A program made the translations under genes and the position numbers. A stretch of 64,000 bases of DNA from Kofleriaceae bacterium (lineage in GTDB: Bacteria; Myxococcota_A; Polyangia; Haliangiales; Haliangiaceae): positions 128,001 through 192,000 of the forward strand of contig CBDCCZ010000001.1 of the NCBI GenBank assembly GCA_965215005.1, read 5' to 3'. The notes beneath the pieces were generated by a model. The model saw nothing but the letters and a program-made list of their open reading frames with translations. It was not told the DNA's origin and ran no database searches. This document shows positions 47,061 through 50,279 of this stretch, piece by piece; the first letter of the stretch is position 1; each line of letters opens with the position of its first letter.

Positions 47061-47633
47061 ATGACCCGTGTACTCACTCTCGAAGGATTGCGCCGCATGA
47101 GACCTCTTCCCGTGGATTCCTATGATGCACTTGCCGGTCTCGATGGCGTTGTCGATCCGGAGGCCCTGCGCGCCGCTCTACCGAGCGCCCTCGGCGGATT
47201 TGGCAGTGGCGCCATCATGCACTTGGCTCATCAGGTGGAGCAGGTGCAGCGCTTGGTCGACACGCCAGTCAAACGCATGGTCGCTGCCGGCGGCCTTGGC
47301 ATCCTCGGGGGCCTTGGAATTTGGCGATTGGACCGCGACGCGGCCATGGGCTGGGTTGGCGGCATGAGCGCGCAACTGGCCAGTGAGCTAATTGCGCTGG
47401 TGATGCGCAAGCCAGGTGGCACCGCGGGCCTTGGCGCCTACCCGGATGAAGACGAGCTCGACGCCGAAGCGGCATTGATGGGCTCCTCGTATCTGGGCGC
47501 GCTTCCAGAAGAGCAAGAGCTTCTTGGCCTTGGCGATCCAGCCGTGGAGCGCCAGACGCCAACAGGCTTCGCCGATGCAGAGATCGAAGTCGACGAAGAG
47601 CTCGATACTTCCCTGGCTGGCTTTCTCACCTAA
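47061..47633 (+). CDS. Membrane protein with acidic tail and repeated LxG motifs
   Basis: RBS GAGGA; Gly-rich hydrophobic helices; acidic C-terminal third. Confidence 0.72.
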   Translation: MTRVLTLEGLRRMRPLPVDSYDALAGLDGVVDPEALRAALPSALGGFGSGAIMHLAHQVEQVQRLVDTPVKRMVAAGGLGILGGLGIWRLDRDAAMGWVGGMSAQLASELIALVMRKPGGTAGLGAYPDEDELDAEAALMGSSYLGALPEEQELLGLGDPAVERQTPTGFADAEIEVDEELDTSLAGFLT

Positions 47634-47761
47634 CCCGCCTTCTCGTTTTTGGCGGCCAGCGAGGCACCCTCAACCACCGCGAGGCTTCCTCGCAACCACT
47701 CACCTCGCTGGCCGCCGCCATTTCCCCTCCGCAAGACGCCGCAGAGGCGCACCCGAGCCCC

Positions 47762-48442
47762 ATGAGCACGCAAACCCTCGTTCCCGTCAAAGGCGAGCCC
47801 GGCGTCTTCTTCAATAAGCTAACTGGCAAGAAGATCCACATTGTTGATTGGCGCGAAGATGACAAGTACGACACCGTCTTCTTGCCGCCTGGCCCGATTC
47901 AGCCGGGCACGTCGCTGTACTTCTTCCGCGACTTGCAAGGCAAGAACCTCATCGACACCAACTTCTCCGCCCCGCGCAAGCTGCCAGCGGGCGAGGAGAT
48001 GATTCTCAACCGCATCGGCGTGCAGATTCCGCTCGCCATCGGCAACGTCCTGATGACGCCGGGCGATATCAAGAAGGTCGCTGAGAACGGCTATCTCGCC
48101 TTCCGCATCAACCGCAAAGACGTGGCCGAAGGGCCGCTGTTGCGCTTTCCGAGCGGGTATGGGCTCTCTGGCTCCACCAACGTCGATAACGACGGCACCT
48201 TGTCGATTGGCGTTCCGTCGACCGCCGCCGCCGCCAAGCTCGCGCGCGACCAGTACGTCAACTCCGACCACGACATGGACGGCGTCGTGACCTACTACGA
48301 TCGCGCTTGGATGCGTGGCCTGCAGGGTATGGGTGATCCCAATGACGACGTCGGCATCGCGCCATTCCCGCCGGTGCTCGAGCGCGGCGTCGCCATTCGA
48401 CTCGTCCTCCACGGTCTCATCAAAGCAGCTGCGACCAAATGA
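47762..48442 (+). CDS. Beta-rich 226-aa protein, candidate jelly-roll major capsid protein
   Basis: ORF is solid with strong C/G-ending codon bias; YDT..YFF..K..DTN..KLP pattern and terminal strand IRLVLHG; capsid call is inference only. Confidence 0.45.
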   Translation: MSTQTLVPVKGEPGVFFNKLTGKKIHIVDWREDDKYDTVFLPPGPIQPGTSLYFFRDLQGKNLIDTNFSAPRKLPAGEEMILNRIGVQIPLAIGNVLMTPGDIKKVAENGYLAFRINRKDVAEGPLLRFPSGYGLSGSTNVDNDGTLSIGVPSTAAAAKLARDQYVNSDHDMDGVVTYYDRAWMRGLQGMGDPNDDVGIAPFPPVLERGVAIRLVLHGLIKAAATK

Positions 48443-48909
48443 TGCGTGCAATCACAGGCGGGCCGCTCATGGCGCATTCGCGCGATGTGCTGGCCTTGCC
48501 ACCGGAGCTCATGCGCATCGATCTGGTGAGCTTCGCCTTCGACATCGGCCCTCGTGGCCAAGTCACAGGCGACACCCAAGCAAGCCTGCATGCCGACTTT
48601 GCCGCGGAGCTCTATGCGATCTCGGCCTTCGCAGAAGATCCGACAGCAGACCTGCCGCTGGCGCCATTTGTAACCATCAACCTGCGCGAAGATGGCCGCA
48701 ACTTCGATCACTTCACCACGCCCATCGAGCTTGCGTACTTTCTTCGACCAGGCGCTCCGGCAGTCACCTTCCCCCGCGGCGCCTACGTCTTCCGTCCAGG
48801 CGCCCGCGTGCGCCTCGGCGTGCGGGTCCATCCTGAGTACATCGCGCGCACGAGTGTCCCCAAACGCTGGGGTGTGCTCTTGGCTCTCAACCTTTGGCGA
48901 AGTGAGTAG
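48439..48909 (+). CDS. Beta-rich 156-aa protein, candidate minor capsid/penton protein
   Basis: ATGA-coupled to the previous gene; alternating hydrophobic strands (FVTINL, YVF, VRLGVRV, WGVLL). Confidence 0.4.
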   Translation: MMRAITGGPLMAHSRDVLALPPELMRIDLVSFAFDIGPRGQVTGDTQASLHADFAAELYAISAFAEDPTADLPLAPFVTINLREDGRNFDHFTTPIELAYFLRPGAPAVTFPRGAYVFRPGARVRLGVRVHPEYIARTSVPKRWGVLLALNLWRSE

Positions 48910-48911
48910 TC

Positions 48912-50279
48912 ATGCAAGTCATCGAGCTCGACTCGGAAGTAAGCCCGCCGGCGTTTGGTCTATCTGGCGATGAGCGCCTGGTATTCGAAGGTGGTCCAGT
49001 CCCCGTTCTCGAAGACGCCATGCTCGGTGACGCCAGCGATGCCGCCGCCGAAGAAGGCGACGCAGCGCAATCTACAAACATCGATCGACGCCGACGCCTC
49101 GAGCAGATCGTCAACCGTCGACGCCGCGCCATCGCCTCCGCCCGTGCCGAGCGCAAGGTGCTAGAAGCCCGCATCGCTGGCCTCGACCGACAGATCGTCT
49201 CCGAGCTGCGTCCCGCGCTCGAGCGCGCCAAGCGCCAAGGCAACCGCGACAAGATGCGCCGTCTCGACGACCGCATCCACCGCCTCGACCTCAACCGCGG
49301 CATCGTCGCCGCACGCGCCATTCGCTACGCCAAGACCGAGGGCCTCGGGCAAGTCCTCATCCGCAATGCCAGAACCCAACAGCAACTCCTAACGCTCATC
49401 CAACAAGCGCAGCGCACAGGCAAGACCAGTGCCGCGTCTACACTGCAGCGCGCCTTCAATCAGATCGCCGGCAAGACGCAACGCTACAAACGCCTCCGTC
49501 GCCACCAAGTGCACGATTGGAGAGAGAAGACCGCCGGATCACGCATCGCACTTGCGCGTATGCTGCGCGAGCAAGCTCAAGAGCGCCTCGCCCGCCTGGA
49601 AGATGCTGCCGGCCGCGGCAGCATCGGTCAACGCATCACTCGTCAAGCCGCCGAGCATCGCGTGCTCGTTACCAAGCTCAAAGCTGCCGAAGAGCGCGAA
49701 CGAAGTCGCCTACAGCACCTCGCTGTTCGAGATGCCCAAGGCATGGCATCCATGCCGTTCTCCGAAGCCACCGCCTTGGCCGCTACCATGGAGCTCGAAG
49801 GCTTCGAAGGCATCTGGTCAAGCATCAAGCGCTACGCCAAGAAGACCGGCGGCGCCATCACCGCCCCCGGCCGCGCCGTCGGCGGCGCCGTCAAAGACGC
49901 CGTCCGCCAAGTCGGCTCCGCCGCCAAACGCCTCGCCAAAGGCGCCGCCTGCGCCGCTGCATCCAACCCCGCCGTCCTCGCCGCCGCCGGAAGCGCCGCC
50001 GGCACCGTTCTCGGCGGCCCCGCCGGAACCATCGCCGGCGGCCTCGCCGCAAAAGCCGCCGGCGGCCTCCTCTCCGCCGCCTGTCCCCAACGATCAAACG
50101 CACCCGGTCCTCAACCGACATCCGGCACTGCCGCCATGCCCGTCTCTATGCAAACCGCGGCTTCAGGCATGCTCCAACCGCAGCCGCGCTCGATGACGCC
50201 CATCCTCATCGGCGGCGGCCTCGCCACCGCCGGCATCCTCGCCGCCGTCGCCCTCAGCGCAAACCGACAAGACTCCTAG
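48912..50279 (+). CDS. Modular protein: acidic N-terminus, Arg-rich coiled coil, Ala/Gly-rich amphipathic region, C-terminal TM
   Basis: ELEGFEGIWSSIKRYAKK; PILIGGGLATAGILAAVAL. Confidence 0.72.
   Translation: MQVIELDSEVSPPAFGLSGDERLVFEGGPVPVLEDAMLGDASDAAAEEGDAAQSTNIDRRRRLEQIVNRRRRAIASARAERKVLEARIAGLDRQIVSELRPALERAKRQGNRDKMRRLDDRIHRLDLNRGIVAARAIRYAKTEGLGQVLIRNARTQQQLLTLIQQAQRTGKTSAASTLQRAFNQIAGKTQRYKRLRRHQVHDWREKTAGSRIALARMLREQAQERLARLEDAAGRGSIGQRITRQAAEHRVLVTKLKAAEERERSRLQHLAVRDAQGMASMPFSEATALAATMELEGFEGIWSSIKRYAKKTGGAITAPGRAVGGAVKDAVRQVGSAAKRLAKGAACAAASNPAVLAAAGSAAGTVLGGPAGTIAGGLAAKAAGGLLSAACPQRSNAPGPQPTSGTAAMPVSMQTAASGMLQPQPRSMTPILIGGGLATAGILAAVALSANRQDS

Follow-up and report, generated by a model that had tools for sequence, protein, structure and literature searches.

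The window (the whole stretch of DNA analysed, 64,000 nucleotides long) carries a series of genes, named here by their lowest coordinate (Table 1), whose order is kept across 72 dereplicated related loci: an integrase, a 43542-like gene, a gene for a transglutaminase-like Cys-His-Asp enzyme, and then 47061-, 47762- and 48439-like genes. The presence counts in this paragraph refer to those dereplicated relatives that have enough flanking DNA on the relevant side. An integrase homologue was present in 16 of the 19 loci with at least 6.5 kb upstream and a 43542 homologue in 15 of the 22 with enough upstream flank, lying on the strand of the capsid-like gene (47762) in 18 of 19 cases. The transglutaminase-like gene was found in 25 of the 31 loci with at least 3 kb upstream, in all cases 5′ of the capsid-like gene and on its strand. 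Closest to the latter are the 47061-like gene (36 of 42 loci with flank; same strand in 43/43, adjacent in 36/43) and the 48439-like gene (35 of 38 loci whose downstream flank is 800 bp or longer; same strand in 38/38, adjacent in 36/38).

Table 1. Coordinates of the module genes, their neighbours and selected protein features in the window
Feature	Coordinates	Strand	Details
Small membrane protein, conserved Cys pair	40367..40936	-	Co-occurs with the module; phmmer matches in L020, L007, L034, L035
Integrase (tyrosine recombinase)	42682..43563	+	First module gene; Pfam Phage_integrase, E 2.9e-30; PHROG integrase
541-aa conserved protein, integrase-linked	43542..45167	+	No family in Pfam, PHROG or NCBIfam
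Transglutaminase-core (papain-like) Cys-His-Asp enzyme	45164..45805	+	PF01841; N-terminal hydrophobic anchor
RibD_C-like cargo gene	45939..46619	-	PF01872, E 1.7e-13; variable slot, outside the module
Highly basic small ORF, 51 aa	46896..47051	+	In frame, just 5′ of 47061; also in the C48 copy
Small Gly-rich membrane-type protein, 190 aa	47061..47633	+	Acidic C-terminal tail with G-hydrophobic-x-G/D motifs
Jelly-roll protein, candidate major capsid protein 1	47762..48442	+	AlphaFold2 model and structural matches
Second conserved small protein, candidate second capsid protein	48439..48909	+	Always just 3′ of the 47762-like gene
Tail-anchored protein, 455 aa	48912..50279	+	Acidic N-terminus, basic helical core, amphipathic domain, C-terminal TM helix
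ELEGFEG, tandem hydrophobic-E-G motif	49791..49811	+	aa 294-300 of 48912, directly before the amphipathic domain
Cationic Gly/Ala-rich amphipathic domain	49812..50111	+	aa 301-400 of 48912, ~100 residues
C-terminal transmembrane anchor of 48912	50193..50261	+	~aa 428-450, Kyte-Doolittle

The same assembly holds a second copy of 94% identity (contig C48), in which 536 bp with a different small ORF stand in place of window positions 45800-46888, and in a contig with a variant form 45800 is joined to 46888. At the position equivalent to the 46896 ORF, Lys-rich small ORFs occur in three further loci (L020, L016 and L028), and the ORF may encode a DNA-condensing protein. The nine named genome records carry labels from seven phyla, and of 401 genomes from the phylum of the window only 3 gave a match, a distribution suggestive of a mobile, patchily spread module. 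In public sequencing runs, which yielded fragmentary contigs, neither an excision junction nor a circular form was seen. The surroundings contain phage-type genes (RusA, Bro-N, a PD-(D/E)XK nuclease, ArdA and SLT). Across the related loci, neither a packaging ATPase nor a terminase or portal turned up, and the module proteins other than the integrase matched no PHROG family. Since terminase, portal, HK97-type and tail families were likewise missing between 15.6 and 51 kb of the window, the jelly-roll module is the only candidate for a structural module.

The protein encoded by 47762 belongs to a family of 193 representative clusters (E≤1e-3) and gave an AlphaFold2 model of high quality (pLDDT 93.3, pTM 0.88) with a jelly-roll fold. 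Among 48,161 chains the top structural match was the SPV1 capsid protein (6oj0), with Z 8.2 and 8.9 in two comparisons over 132-135 aligned residues at 3.4-3.5 Å. These values are middling: the tool's own note puts the usual best Z of models that lack clear relatives at 7-8. Further matches were P23-77 VP17 (Z 6.7-6.8), SH1 (6.8), HHIV-2 (6.5) and HCIV-1 (6.5-6.6); ranks 4 to 7 were taken by VP17, STIV A223, HHIV-2 and HCIV-1 (Z 6.5-6.7), all capsid proteins of internal-membrane viruses, so that five of the top seven matches, including the first, belong to capsid or vertex proteins from viruses that contain a membrane. A Foldseek search of the model against the PDB returned nothing at E≤1e-3. 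When profiles were compared with hhalign, the adjacent 48439 protein showed no relation to 47762 (probability 0.6), and it had no match of note in a sequence search of the PDB. Its nearest Atlas clusters, offered only as a lead, are unnamed viral proteins at 0.91.

We therefore consider, with a probability of about 0.55, that 47061-50279 makes up the virion-structure module of an integrated bacterial virus-like element, which would specify a tailless, membrane-containing particle with small jelly-roll capsid proteins. The case is made by the 47762 fold, the synteny, the patchy mobility, the phage context, a membrane signature, the glycine motif described below and the lack of an ATPase as in SPV1; from these we infer both the viral nature of the element and its internal membrane. 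The membrane signature consists of the tail-anchored proteins that recur among the modules, the N-terminal anchor of the transglutaminase-like enzyme and the hydrophobic Gly-rich segments of 47061. The shell would be built from 47762, probably together with 48439. Against this reading stand the middling Z, with a cellular jelly roll scoring 7.2-7.5, the empty Foldseek search, the absence of PHROG matches, the lack of a profile relation between 48439 and 47762, and the fact that neither a particle nor an excision junction or circular form was seen; the docking and ruler roles proposed below draw only on composition and analogy. The element family appears to be new: previously undescribed, widespread and integrated.

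The same observations could also be accommodated, though improbably, by a non-virion device of a mobile element, such as a surface, adhesion or carbohydrate-binding structure, in which the glycine motifs would be structural turns. Jelly rolls are common outside viruses, and cellular ones scored Z 5-7.5 against the 47762 model (peptidylglycine monooxygenase at 7.2-7.5, along with nucleoplasmin, GOLD and TasA-type proteins); the missing packaging ATPase, other viral hallmark genes and PHROG matches would fit as well. On the other hand, five of the seven best matches, the first among them, come from membrane-containing viruses, two small conserved proteins lie in tandem as in two-capsid-protein viruses, the context is phage-like without any other structural module, and three homologous loci occur in a viral contig collection. 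Nor is an ATPase obligatory, SPV1 and FLiP being accepted as viruses without one according to a passage in PMC8812541.

On the membrane side of the putative virion module lies first the 47061 protein, whose family comprises 32 database proteins plus the locus copies. It is rich in Gly (13.7%) and Leu (15.3%), has an acidic tail (18 D/E vs 3 K/R), and its family shows one to five hydrophobic peaks (KD17 1.2-2.0); as part of the virion-module reading, and at the same strength, we regard it as a small membrane protein of the Gly-zipper type. Translation may really begin at 47097 (M13), a codon that has its own GAAGGA upstream, opens the recorded 178-aa form (P0162) and agrees better with the homologue N-termini. 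The tail holds one to three short G-hydrophobic-x-G/D-x-x-V units followed by a conserved aromatic C-terminus, and the extreme C-terminus past the last motif is strongly conserved in the family. The G[LFMI]x[GD] sites lie in acidic segments of alternating, strand-like sequence, and by composition and analogy the units could be turn-plus-strand elements that dock the protein shell onto the membrane and so hold the two together.

The second putative membrane component, 48912, has an acidic N-terminus (aa 1-55, 13 D/E and 1 K/R) and a basic core (aa 56-290, 55 K/R and 24 D/E). Its highest Kyte-Doolittle 19-residue windows start at aa 427-433 (up to 2.04), the remaining windows above 1.2 peaking at just 1.26 (aa 345-374). 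Homologues were found in L020 (BLASTP 4e-5) and L034 (2e-8) and, with a local HMM, in L095, L105, L032 and L063; tail-anchored proteins recur among the modules, with C-terminal hydrophobic anchors in neighbouring module proteins of L020, L024, L010 and L026. The invariant positions of a four-sequence alignment are S18, G19, R135, A136, K141, K306 and C347. By composition and analogy, the basic helical core of ~235 residues may work as a ruler, or as cement, in the space between shell and membrane.

In both proteins, whose genes flank those of the candidate capsid proteins, the sequence-only reading had noticed repeated [L/M/F]xG motifs and had taken them for sites of proteolytic maturation. 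All 12 strings it listed are present, namely TLEG (aa 6), LAGLDG (aa 24), AGLG (aa 122), ALMG (aa 138), YLG (aa 144), LLGLG (aa 154) and SLAG (aa 184) in 47061, and FGLSG (aa 15), VFEG (aa 24), AMLG (aa 36) and ELEGFEG (aa 294-300) in 48912; GLG or LEG in 41915 and 34360, and GLG at the C-terminus of 34970, are likewise readable. As the real start is possibly 47097, TLEG may fall outside the 47061 protein. In the window itself, though, the motifs do not exceed chance: [LMFI]xG occurs 9 times in 47061 (6.15±2.02 in shuffles, P=0.12) and 11 times in 48912 (7.49±2.42, P=0.11). The strict adenovirus-type patterns [MIL]xGxG or [MIL]xGGx gave 4 sites in 47061 (P=0.037), three of them within Gly-rich hydrophobic segments, and 3 in 48912 (P=0.11). 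Compared with 3643 long ORFs of the same genome (mean 1.61 per 100 aa), 47061 does stand out, with a density of 4.74 (99.7th percentile; 48912 is at the 85th), but the shuffles attribute this density to Gly/Leu-rich composition, in keeping with the earlier caveat that these residues are common in high-GC proteomes. Conservation was equally uneven, a few sites of 47061 being kept among nine homologues (ILGG81, in a hydrophobic Gly-zipper-like segment, in 7/9; LAG24 in 4/9; LLG154 in 3/9) and the others, about five to six of the nine, in none or one. Most of the listed LxG strings are thus by-products of composition.

What is conserved is a narrower motif, represented in the window by a subset of the strings: LAGLDG and LLGLG sit at conserved G-hydrophobic-x-G/D positions, and FGLSG and ELEGFEG likewise at conserved motif positions in 48912. 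In 36 held-out 47061-like tails, G[LFMI]x[GD] was counted 33 times, against 10.1±3.0 in shuffles, a number reached by none of 2000 shuffles, although conservation statistics over related sequences overstate independence; this order of residue classes ranked first of 12 permutations (z 7.4). FGLSG is kept in 4/4 aligned 48912 homologues. A G-hydrophobic motif thus occurs in two unrelated families of the module, in the 47061 tails and at the N-terminus and residues 294-300 of 48912.

The helix that the sequence-only reading placed directly after ELEGFEG is indeed there, but its segment, IWSSIKRYAKKTGG (aa 301-314), ends at position 49853 (from 49812) rather than 49850. These first 14 residues of the amphipathic domain have a hydrophobic moment of 0.55, rank 45 of 442 windows in 48912; the strongest 18-mer of the domain lies at aa 326-343 (0.73). 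Over the whole domain, hydrophobicity has a periodicity peak at 98° and a lag-11 autocorrelation of 0.33, and the same 11-residue periodicity is found in L034 (96°, 0.39) and L035 (98°, 0.34). Such a pattern fits binding in the plane of a membrane no less than lysis; within the putative particle the cationic domain would lie flat on the membrane. A G[LF]E[GW]-type motif stands directly before a cationic amphipathic helix also in L034, L035 and L095, while in L105 the arrangement is looser. Of the 30 dereplicated loci whose downstream flank reaches 2 kb or more, only three passed a strict test for motif plus helix, namely the window and its relatives L034 and L035; a looser test added L095.

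That motifs and helix are functionless, chance products of Gly/Leu/Ala-rich, high-GC coding sequence is very improbable and already disfavoured for the conserved subset. The non-significant shuffles of the window, the five 47061 sites that are hardly conserved and the GC content of ~63-65% in this stretch would agree with it. Yet the enrichment in held-out tails and its order specificity speak against it, as do the invariance of S18 and G19 of GLSG and of K306 among 48912 homologues of only 21-24% identity and the 96-98° periodicity common to three divergent proteins.

Regarding the enzyme, the sequence-only reading had proposed, by analogy with adenovirus, that 45164 is a protease that may cut after these glycines. 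Membership of the adenain family was rejected, the protein being of the transglutaminase core by PF01841 (E 2.3e-9, 38 bits vs a cutoff of 23). Cys136, His169 and Asp188 are invariant in 29/29 family members, and 23/29 have an N-terminal anchor (KD15>1.5; the window protein reaches 1.46). A role as cell-wall peptidase or in cross-linking would be just as possible. Corrected accordingly, the proposal would be that membrane-anchored 45164 is a maturation protease. Its substrates would be proteins of the 47061 and 48912 types, cut at G-hydrophobic-x-G/D sites, whereby the acidic segments at the N- and C-termini would be removed and the cationic amphipathic domain would be released to remodel or penetrate membranes, in a way analogous to, not homologous with, adenovirus maturation. 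We regard this as unlikely but as a live minority hypothesis. Consistent with it are the invariant triad, the place of the gene in the module core, the order-specific motif common to two unrelated protein families and its position directly before a cationic helix, strictly in the window and in two relatives (L034 and L035) and on looser terms in L095; the conserved C-terminus of the 47061 family past the last motif would suit a released peptide with its own role, and 4u65_E, one of the nearest PDB entries, is titled putative cysteine protease, though at E of just 0.55-0.57. The rarity of the strict motif-plus-helix arrangement argues against it, however, and in L020, L010 and L012 motif-bearing proteins occur with no transglutaminase-like gene within ~8.5 kb on either side. 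Moreover, 45164 could be an endopeptidase that acts on the cell wall at entry, beside the other wall hydrolases that these elements encode (SLT, M23, glucosaminidase), and we know of no proteolytic maturation in PRD1-, PM2- or P23-77-type phages.

Overall, the earlier interpretation finds partial support, and neither adenovirus protein VI nor its protease proved to have a homologue here. The adenovirus protease consensus is of the hydrophobic-x-G-G type, an order that was not enriched in the family tails (10 vs 9.9), the conserved motif of the element being G-hydrophobic-x-G/D. The supposed protein VI-like helix found no relative either, a 47-aa segment giving no PDB chain at E≤10 and no Pfam match. 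On paper there are likenesses, namely a cysteine enzyme encoded with capsid genes, glycine motifs in structural proteins and an amphipathic helix after a motif in 48912; in adenovirus the cysteine protease AVP acts on precursor protein VI, whose biology is taken here from passages in PMC8310329 and PMC3386624. Unlike adenain, however, 45164 is of the transglutaminase core with Cys-His-Asp order, and unlike that of protein VI, the helix of 48912 is internal, 300 residues into a tail-anchored protein and part of a domain of ~100 residues. Closer in fold family and Cys-His-Asp arrangement are the LapG-type transglutaminase-like cysteine proteinases (4fgo and 4u65, the nearest PDB sequences, at non-significant E of 0.55-0.57), which show that site-specific protease activity is possible for this fold. 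LapG itself is soluble, resides in the periplasm and cleaves an adhesin at a di-alanine site; 45164, by contrast, carries a hydrophobic anchor at its N-terminus and belongs to a mobile element.

Among viruses, SPV1, a membrane-containing icosahedral virus, provides the best structural match to 47762, and the packaging ATPase, which a passage in PMC8812541 states to be absent from SPV1, was not found in this module either. The differences are that SPV1 infects an archaeal hyperthermophile and the element bacteria of many phyla, that the capsid proteins share only 6-10% identity with no sequence-level relation, and that the element has a core transglutaminase-like enzyme, the 541-aa protein linked to the integrase and, as a further small shell candidate, a protein unrelated to the first. 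With the Helvetiavirae, internal-membrane viruses with two capsid proteins (P23-77 VP16/VP17, SH1, HHIV-2 and HCIV-1), the element would share small jelly-roll capsid proteins from adjoining genes, an internal membrane holding numerous small membrane proteins, and temperate or proviral forms; the structural matches (Z 5.1-6.8) are within the range for unrelated jelly rolls. Helvetiavirae have an FtsK/HerA-type packaging ATPase, not found in the element, and 48439 is not detectably related to 47762. The capsid protein of PRD1 is a double jelly roll, and PRD1 packages with an ATPase; its tape-measure protein P30 and membrane-linker P16 are extended or helical proteins between the internal membrane and the shell, and a role of this kind is, by analogy, the one that we propose for the basic core of 48912 and the tail of 47061.

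At E ≤ 1e-3 the family of the candidate major capsid protein 47762 numbers 193 representative clusters, of which 35 remain at E ≤ 1e-30; almost all are 205-240 aa long. The protein matched no Pfam, PHROG or NCBIfam family. An AlphaFold2 model built on a 115-sequence alignment was confident and beta-rich (pLDDT 93.3, pTM 0.88); folding of the single sequence with no alignment gave a pLDDT of 31.9. When the model was searched against 48,161 chains, the capsid protein of the archaeal virus SPV1 ranked first (Z 8.2), with peptidylglycine monooxygenase (7.2-7.4), P23-77 VP17 (6.7), STIV A223 (6.6), HHIV-2 (6.5) and HCIV-1 (6.5) at lower ranks, and in a second structure search SPV1 was again first (Z 8.9), with SH1 at 6.8. 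The margin of SPV1 over the next unrelated fold is about 1-1.5 Z. These Z scores, which are middling by the tool's own calibration, show the modelled protein to be a jelly roll, to which shell proteins of membrane-containing viruses are the closest among solved structures, homology not being proven by them. Foldseek returned no PDB match at E ≤ 1e-3 and nine matches at that threshold in a viral library, the best of which was annotated 'putative capsid [uncultured virus]' (1.1e-4) and had a low TM-score. Profile searches of the PDB with the families of 47762 and of 48439, the candidate second capsid protein encoded immediately downstream, gave nothing meaningful, and a complex prediction for the two proteins (own alignments, run without controls; score 0.00, mark 0.32) is no evidence either way. 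One locus of the viral collection, L032, carries two tandem 47762-type paralogues together with a 48439-type gene.

Related loci were collected by searching DNA for a degenerate rendering of the conserved [ED]GPxxx[FY]PSGYG stretch, and all locus counts refer to that subset of the 47762 family. True loci amounted to 9/23 for species-representative genomes, 3/6 for the viral contig collection (where a single-protein search with 47762 found 0 loci) and 81/100 for metagenome contigs. The nine named records bear the labels Gemmatimonadota (two), Actinomycetota (two), Verrucomicrobiota, a Fimbriimonadaceae bacterium, Candidatus Eisenbacteria, Gammaproteobacteria and Hyphomicrobium; within the phylum of the window a match was seen in only 3 of 401 genomes sampled, and of 41 close relatives none but the genome of the window had one. 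Gene presence (see the table) was counted after dereplication to 72 loci, using only loci with enough flank and gene calls from open-frame and GC3 heuristics. The order of the module is conserved: 47061-like (43/43), 48439-like (38/38) and transglutaminase-like genes (29/29) lie on the same strand as the capsid-like gene, which is directly adjoined by the first in 36 of 43 cases and by the second in 36 of 38.

Coordinates, sizes and occurrence of the features discussed (window positions unless a locus or contig is named)
Feature	Position (strand)	Size	Loci with such a gene	Remarks
tRNA-Val and tRNA-Asp	15495-16950 region			followed by the integrase
Integrase	15637-16950 (-)
97-bp repeat	15649-15745; C1:205165-205261	97 bp		first copy over the 3' end of tRNA-Asp
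ResIII/DEAD-type helicases	23285-24745 (+); 36620-37723 (-)			paralogous
Integrase of the module			16/19
43542-like gene			15/22
Transglutaminase-like gene (45164)			25/31
Cargo slot	45800-46888			variable
Extremely basic ORF	46896-47051	51 aa
47061	47061-47633	190 aa	36/42
47762	47762-48442	226 aa		jelly-roll candidate capsid protein
48439	48439-48909	156 aa	35/38	second conserved small protein
48912	48912-50279	455 aa
48912, acidic N-terminus	aa 1-55			13 D/E, 1 K/R
48912, basic helical core	aa 56-290			55 K/R, 24 D/E
48912, Gly/Ala-rich amphipathic stretch	from aa 301	~100 residues		hydrophobicity periodicity
48912, C-terminal transmembrane helix				downstream of the amphipathic stretch
ORF without family	51236-55681	1481 aa
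RHS-repeat protein	55708-62225	1973 aa
Transposase-like ORF (start)	63063-64000
Second element copy on contig C48	L004 2252-3232 (-)
...IAVLDG[LI] proteins	L010 10790-11692; L012 11526-12266; L021 2090-2962 (-); L026 about 11586-12494
Tandem 47762-type paralogues	L032 8984-9685 and 9742-10548 (-)

Pfam recognized, among 116 neighbour ORFs of five loci, only integrases, transglutaminase cores, cell-wall hydrolases or wall-binding domains, methyltransferases, a SASA-type carbohydrate esterase and DUF3140, and NCBIfam assigned no family to 10 module and neighbouring proteins. Between 15.6 and 51 kb the window encodes phage-type genes (PD-(D/E)XK nuclease, RusA, Bro-N, ArdA, SLT, helicases, integrases). 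Terminase, portal, HK97-type and tail families were not found there, nor was a Walker A protein of packaging type; in a scan of the whole window, Walker A proteins were limited to two helicases and two ATPases of host type, which we read as ClpX and Lon. No ATPase family occurred among the 116 neighbour ORFs either, and the elements may extend past the flanks examined. The listing of public runs shows none of RNA, and neither excision nor a circle junction was seen in fragmentary contigs of two DNA-type public runs from one study, joints with 21-25-letter sides being disregarded as unreliable. We read the genes as a structural module of a membrane-containing jelly-roll provirus, with 47061 and 48912 as membrane-associated structural proteins and their conserved Gly motifs as docking or turn elements, and give this reading a probability of roughly 0.55. 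That they form a non-viral device, a view to which the missing virion families and the cellular jelly rolls among the structural matches lend something and from which the top rank of a viral capsid protein and the phage-type gene context detract, seems unlikely to us.

The sequence-only reading had started from the Gly motifs, taking repeated [L/M/F]xG strings in 47061 and 48912, together with a helix likened to that of adenovirus protein VI, as signs of proteolytic maturation, possibly by the 45164 protease. All of its strings are present in the two ORFs, ELEGFEG occupying aa 294-300 of 48912 with IWSSIKRYAKKTGG directly after it (aa 301-314, nt 49812-49853), and GLG or LEG strings were confirmed in ORFs 41915, 34360 and 34970. 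No homologue of the latter three turned up in the first 11 related loci examined, which leaves no conservation of their strings to weigh. Within the window, the density of [LMFI]xG does not exceed what composition gives in either 47061 (9 vs 6.15±2.02 in 2000 shuffles, P=0.12) or 48912 (11 vs 7.49±2.42, P=0.11). Compared with 3643 long ORFs from this genome, 47061 does stand high, at the 99.7th percentile (48912: 85th), but the shuffles show that the high rank reflects composition, Gly making up 13.7% of 47061 and Leu 15.3%. Of the four adenovirus-type matches in 47061, three fall inside Gly-rich hydrophobic segments, and TLEG may precede the true start, for which M13 at 47097 is an equally good candidate.

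A different picture emerged from the 47061 family, which comprises 32 database proteins besides the locus copies. Its members have 1-5 moderately hydrophobic, Gly/Ala-rich segments, an acidic tail (18 D/E vs 3 K/R in the window) and a conserved aromatic C-terminus. Across nine homologues, conservation of the nine [LMFI]xG sites of 47061 held for ILGG81 (7/9), which is located in a hydrophobic segment, and in part for LAG24 (4/9) and LLG154 (3/9), but not for the others (0-1/9). Ten sequences yielded a narrower pattern, G-[LFMI]-x-[G/D] (in many cases with x-x-V after it), which was tested on 36 held-out dereplicated tails and occurred there 33 times vs 10.1±3.0 in shuffles (0 of 2000 shuffles reached 33), with at least one occurrence in 23 of the 36; the broader [LMFI]xG occurred 103 times vs 59.1±6.7, and the significance of these shuffle figures is overstated because the tails are related. 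In a relatedness-keeping control, in which 12 orderings of the same residue classes were compared, G[LFMI]x[GD] came out on top (z 7.4), an overlapping variant second (z 5.0) and the remainder at z ≤ 3.2. The adenovirus-like order [LFMI]xG[GD], modelled on the adenovirus protease consensus, was not enriched in the 47061-like tails (z 0.0). Pure chance, which would suffice for the motif densities of the window and sits poorly with the ordering control, is a very improbable account of the whole.

A protein beginning ...IAVLDG[LI] in four relatives (L010, L012, L021, L026) has a roughly threefold repeat ending ...P[ST]LPSSEGLAG or ...PSGESGLAG, and is another carrier of Gly-Leu motifs in these modules. 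The idea of a shared 'VLDGL'-like N-terminal signal on module proteins was dropped, the pattern turning up within 30 residues of the start in only 17 of 167 predicted ORFs, a figure that comes without a baseline.

The 48912 protein evolves fast. Homologues were found in L020 (BLASTP 4e-5) and L034 (2e-8), and through a local profile in L095, L105, L032 and L063; database searches with 48912 alone or with a four-sequence alignment returned only its own C48 copy or the L034 protein, and an ESM Atlas search gave nothing above 0.82. At 21-24% identity, the alignment keeps S18 and G19 (of the FGLSG string), the RAIRYAK core, K306 in the proposed helix and C347. The 14-residue segment proposed as amphipathic is so, though moderately (hydrophobic moment 0.55, rank 45 of 442). 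In the window, L034 and L035, the domain that it opens has a hydrophobicity period of 96-98 degrees, with an autocorrelation at lag 11 of 0.33-0.39, a periodicity typical of helices lying flat on membranes. Of 30 dereplicated loci with 2 kb or more downstream, only these same three carry, under a strict definition, a G[LF]E[GW]-type motif immediately followed by a cationic amphipathic helix; looser versions exist in L095 and L105.

As for the enzyme, 45164 matches only PF01841 Transglut_core in Pfam (E 2.3e-9; 38.0 bits vs a cutoff of 23), a profile that its L026 and L028 homologues match too. Its triad Cys136-His169-Asp188 is unchanged in all 29 aligned family members, and an N-terminal hydrophobic anchor is present in 23 of them. 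Among solved sequences the nearest, at only E 0.55-0.57, include 4u65, titled putative cysteine protease, and 4fgo, both LapG-type proteases. By its sequence, 45164 is an active-looking, membrane-anchored papain-fold enzyme, which may act as a protease, in cross-linking or in hydrolysis of the wall. A corrected maturation-protease model would have it cut 47061- and 48912-type proteins at the conserved Gly motifs; what this model predicts computationally is found in the family and not in the window, and we regard it as doubtful. Improbable, too, in our estimate is the most far-reaching reading, according to which the module would represent a deep, widespread, undescribed temperate bacterial virus lineage with SPV1-like jelly-roll capsids and no packaging ATPase, whose membrane-anchored transglutaminase-fold protease would cut membrane and ruler proteins at G-hydrophobic-x-G/D and free a cationic amphipathic membrane-active domain. 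If true, it would amount to an independent bacterial invention of adenovirus-style capsid maturation. Should the provirus module build particles, small-jelly-roll, membrane-containing, motor-less viruses would extend to bacteria of many phyla, with a conserved set of about six genes by which to recognize such proviruses; at the level of listings and abstracts, no description of bacterial elements of this kind was found in the literature. A core transglutaminase-fold enzyme and an order-specific Gly motif common to two unrelated structural proteins make a directly testable case, the alternatives being a new kind of capsid maturation and a new kind of membrane-to-shell docking peptide.

The second element copy on C48 is 94.3% identical in nucleotides to window 31188-45800 and 46888-49888; its 48912 homologue ends at aa 326, where similarity to the window stops, and is followed by ORFs that we take, from their appearance, for IS66-type accessory genes. 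The intervening slot, between the transglutaminase-like gene and 47061, holds variable cargo (a RibD_C-like gene on the minus strand in the window; 536 bp with a different 94-aa ORF in C48), and a public contig joins 45800 directly to 46888. The basic ORF just upstream of 47061 is kept in C48, and Lys-rich small ORFs occupy its position in L020, L016 and L028. It may be a DNA-condensing protein, which would suit an element without a packaging motor. The 97-bp repeats (95.9% identity), of which the second lies 61.5 kb downstream and outside the window, may serve as attachment sites for a large composite island containing the element; in the same island, the two paralogous helicases suggest two tandem or nested mobile elements. 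Directly after the element's last gene, in a stretch of lower GC (0.56-0.57), lies an ORF with no family in Pfam, PHROGs or NCBIfam. The RHS-repeat protein has FG-GAP repeats and a C-terminal Tox-REase-7 nuclease domain, the 3' part of its gene having copies at 85-94% identity on C37 and C46; after it comes a 199-aa ORF, likely an immunity gene, whose HEAT-repeat match is weak and below the cutoff. The start of the transposase-like ORF recurs at 99% identity at another place on C1 and on C5, so it is an insertion sequence.

As to known systems, no similarity to adenovirus protein VI was found by sequence or profile. Neither 48912 nor 47061 has a Pfam family at E ≤ 0.01, and phmmer with the 47-aa helix segment found 0 matches at E ≤ 10 in all PDB chains, a set which presumably includes adenovirus virion entries. 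In protein VI, which the viral protease cuts at both ends, the amphipathic helix forms the mature N-terminus, directly after the protease site, whereas that of 48912 is internal, starting at aa 301 of 455, upstream of the C-terminal anchor, and running on as the periodic domain. The enzyme likewise lacks a match to the adenain family profile, its triad order being Cys-His-Asp, and shares with the transglutaminase-like superfamily both this triad and a profile match above the curated cutoff. Against capsid proteins of Helvetiavirae, the jelly-roll model of 47762 scores Z 6.5-6.8 (VP17, SH1, HHIV-2 and HCIV-1) and 5.1-5.5 (VP16), a cellular jelly roll reaching 7.2-7.5. Helvetiavirae have two adjacent jelly-roll capsid genes; here the neighbour of the 47762-like gene is usually 48439-like, and hhalign found no relation between the two proteins. 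Their FtsK/HerA-type packaging ATPase was not found in the window scan or the 116 neighbour ORFs. Closest in both structure searches is SPV1 (Portogloboviridae), although identity over the structural alignment is 6-10%, the 115-sequence profile of 47762 finds no PDB chain at E ≤ 10, and the SPV1 host is archaeal whereas the named host records of the module are bacterial. According to PMC8812541, SPV1 and FLiP are without packaging ATPases, SPV1 is placed at the base of the small-jelly-roll capsid proteins, and the combination of small jelly rolls, a membrane and no packaging motor, to date represented by one archaeal virus family, is discussed as ancestral.
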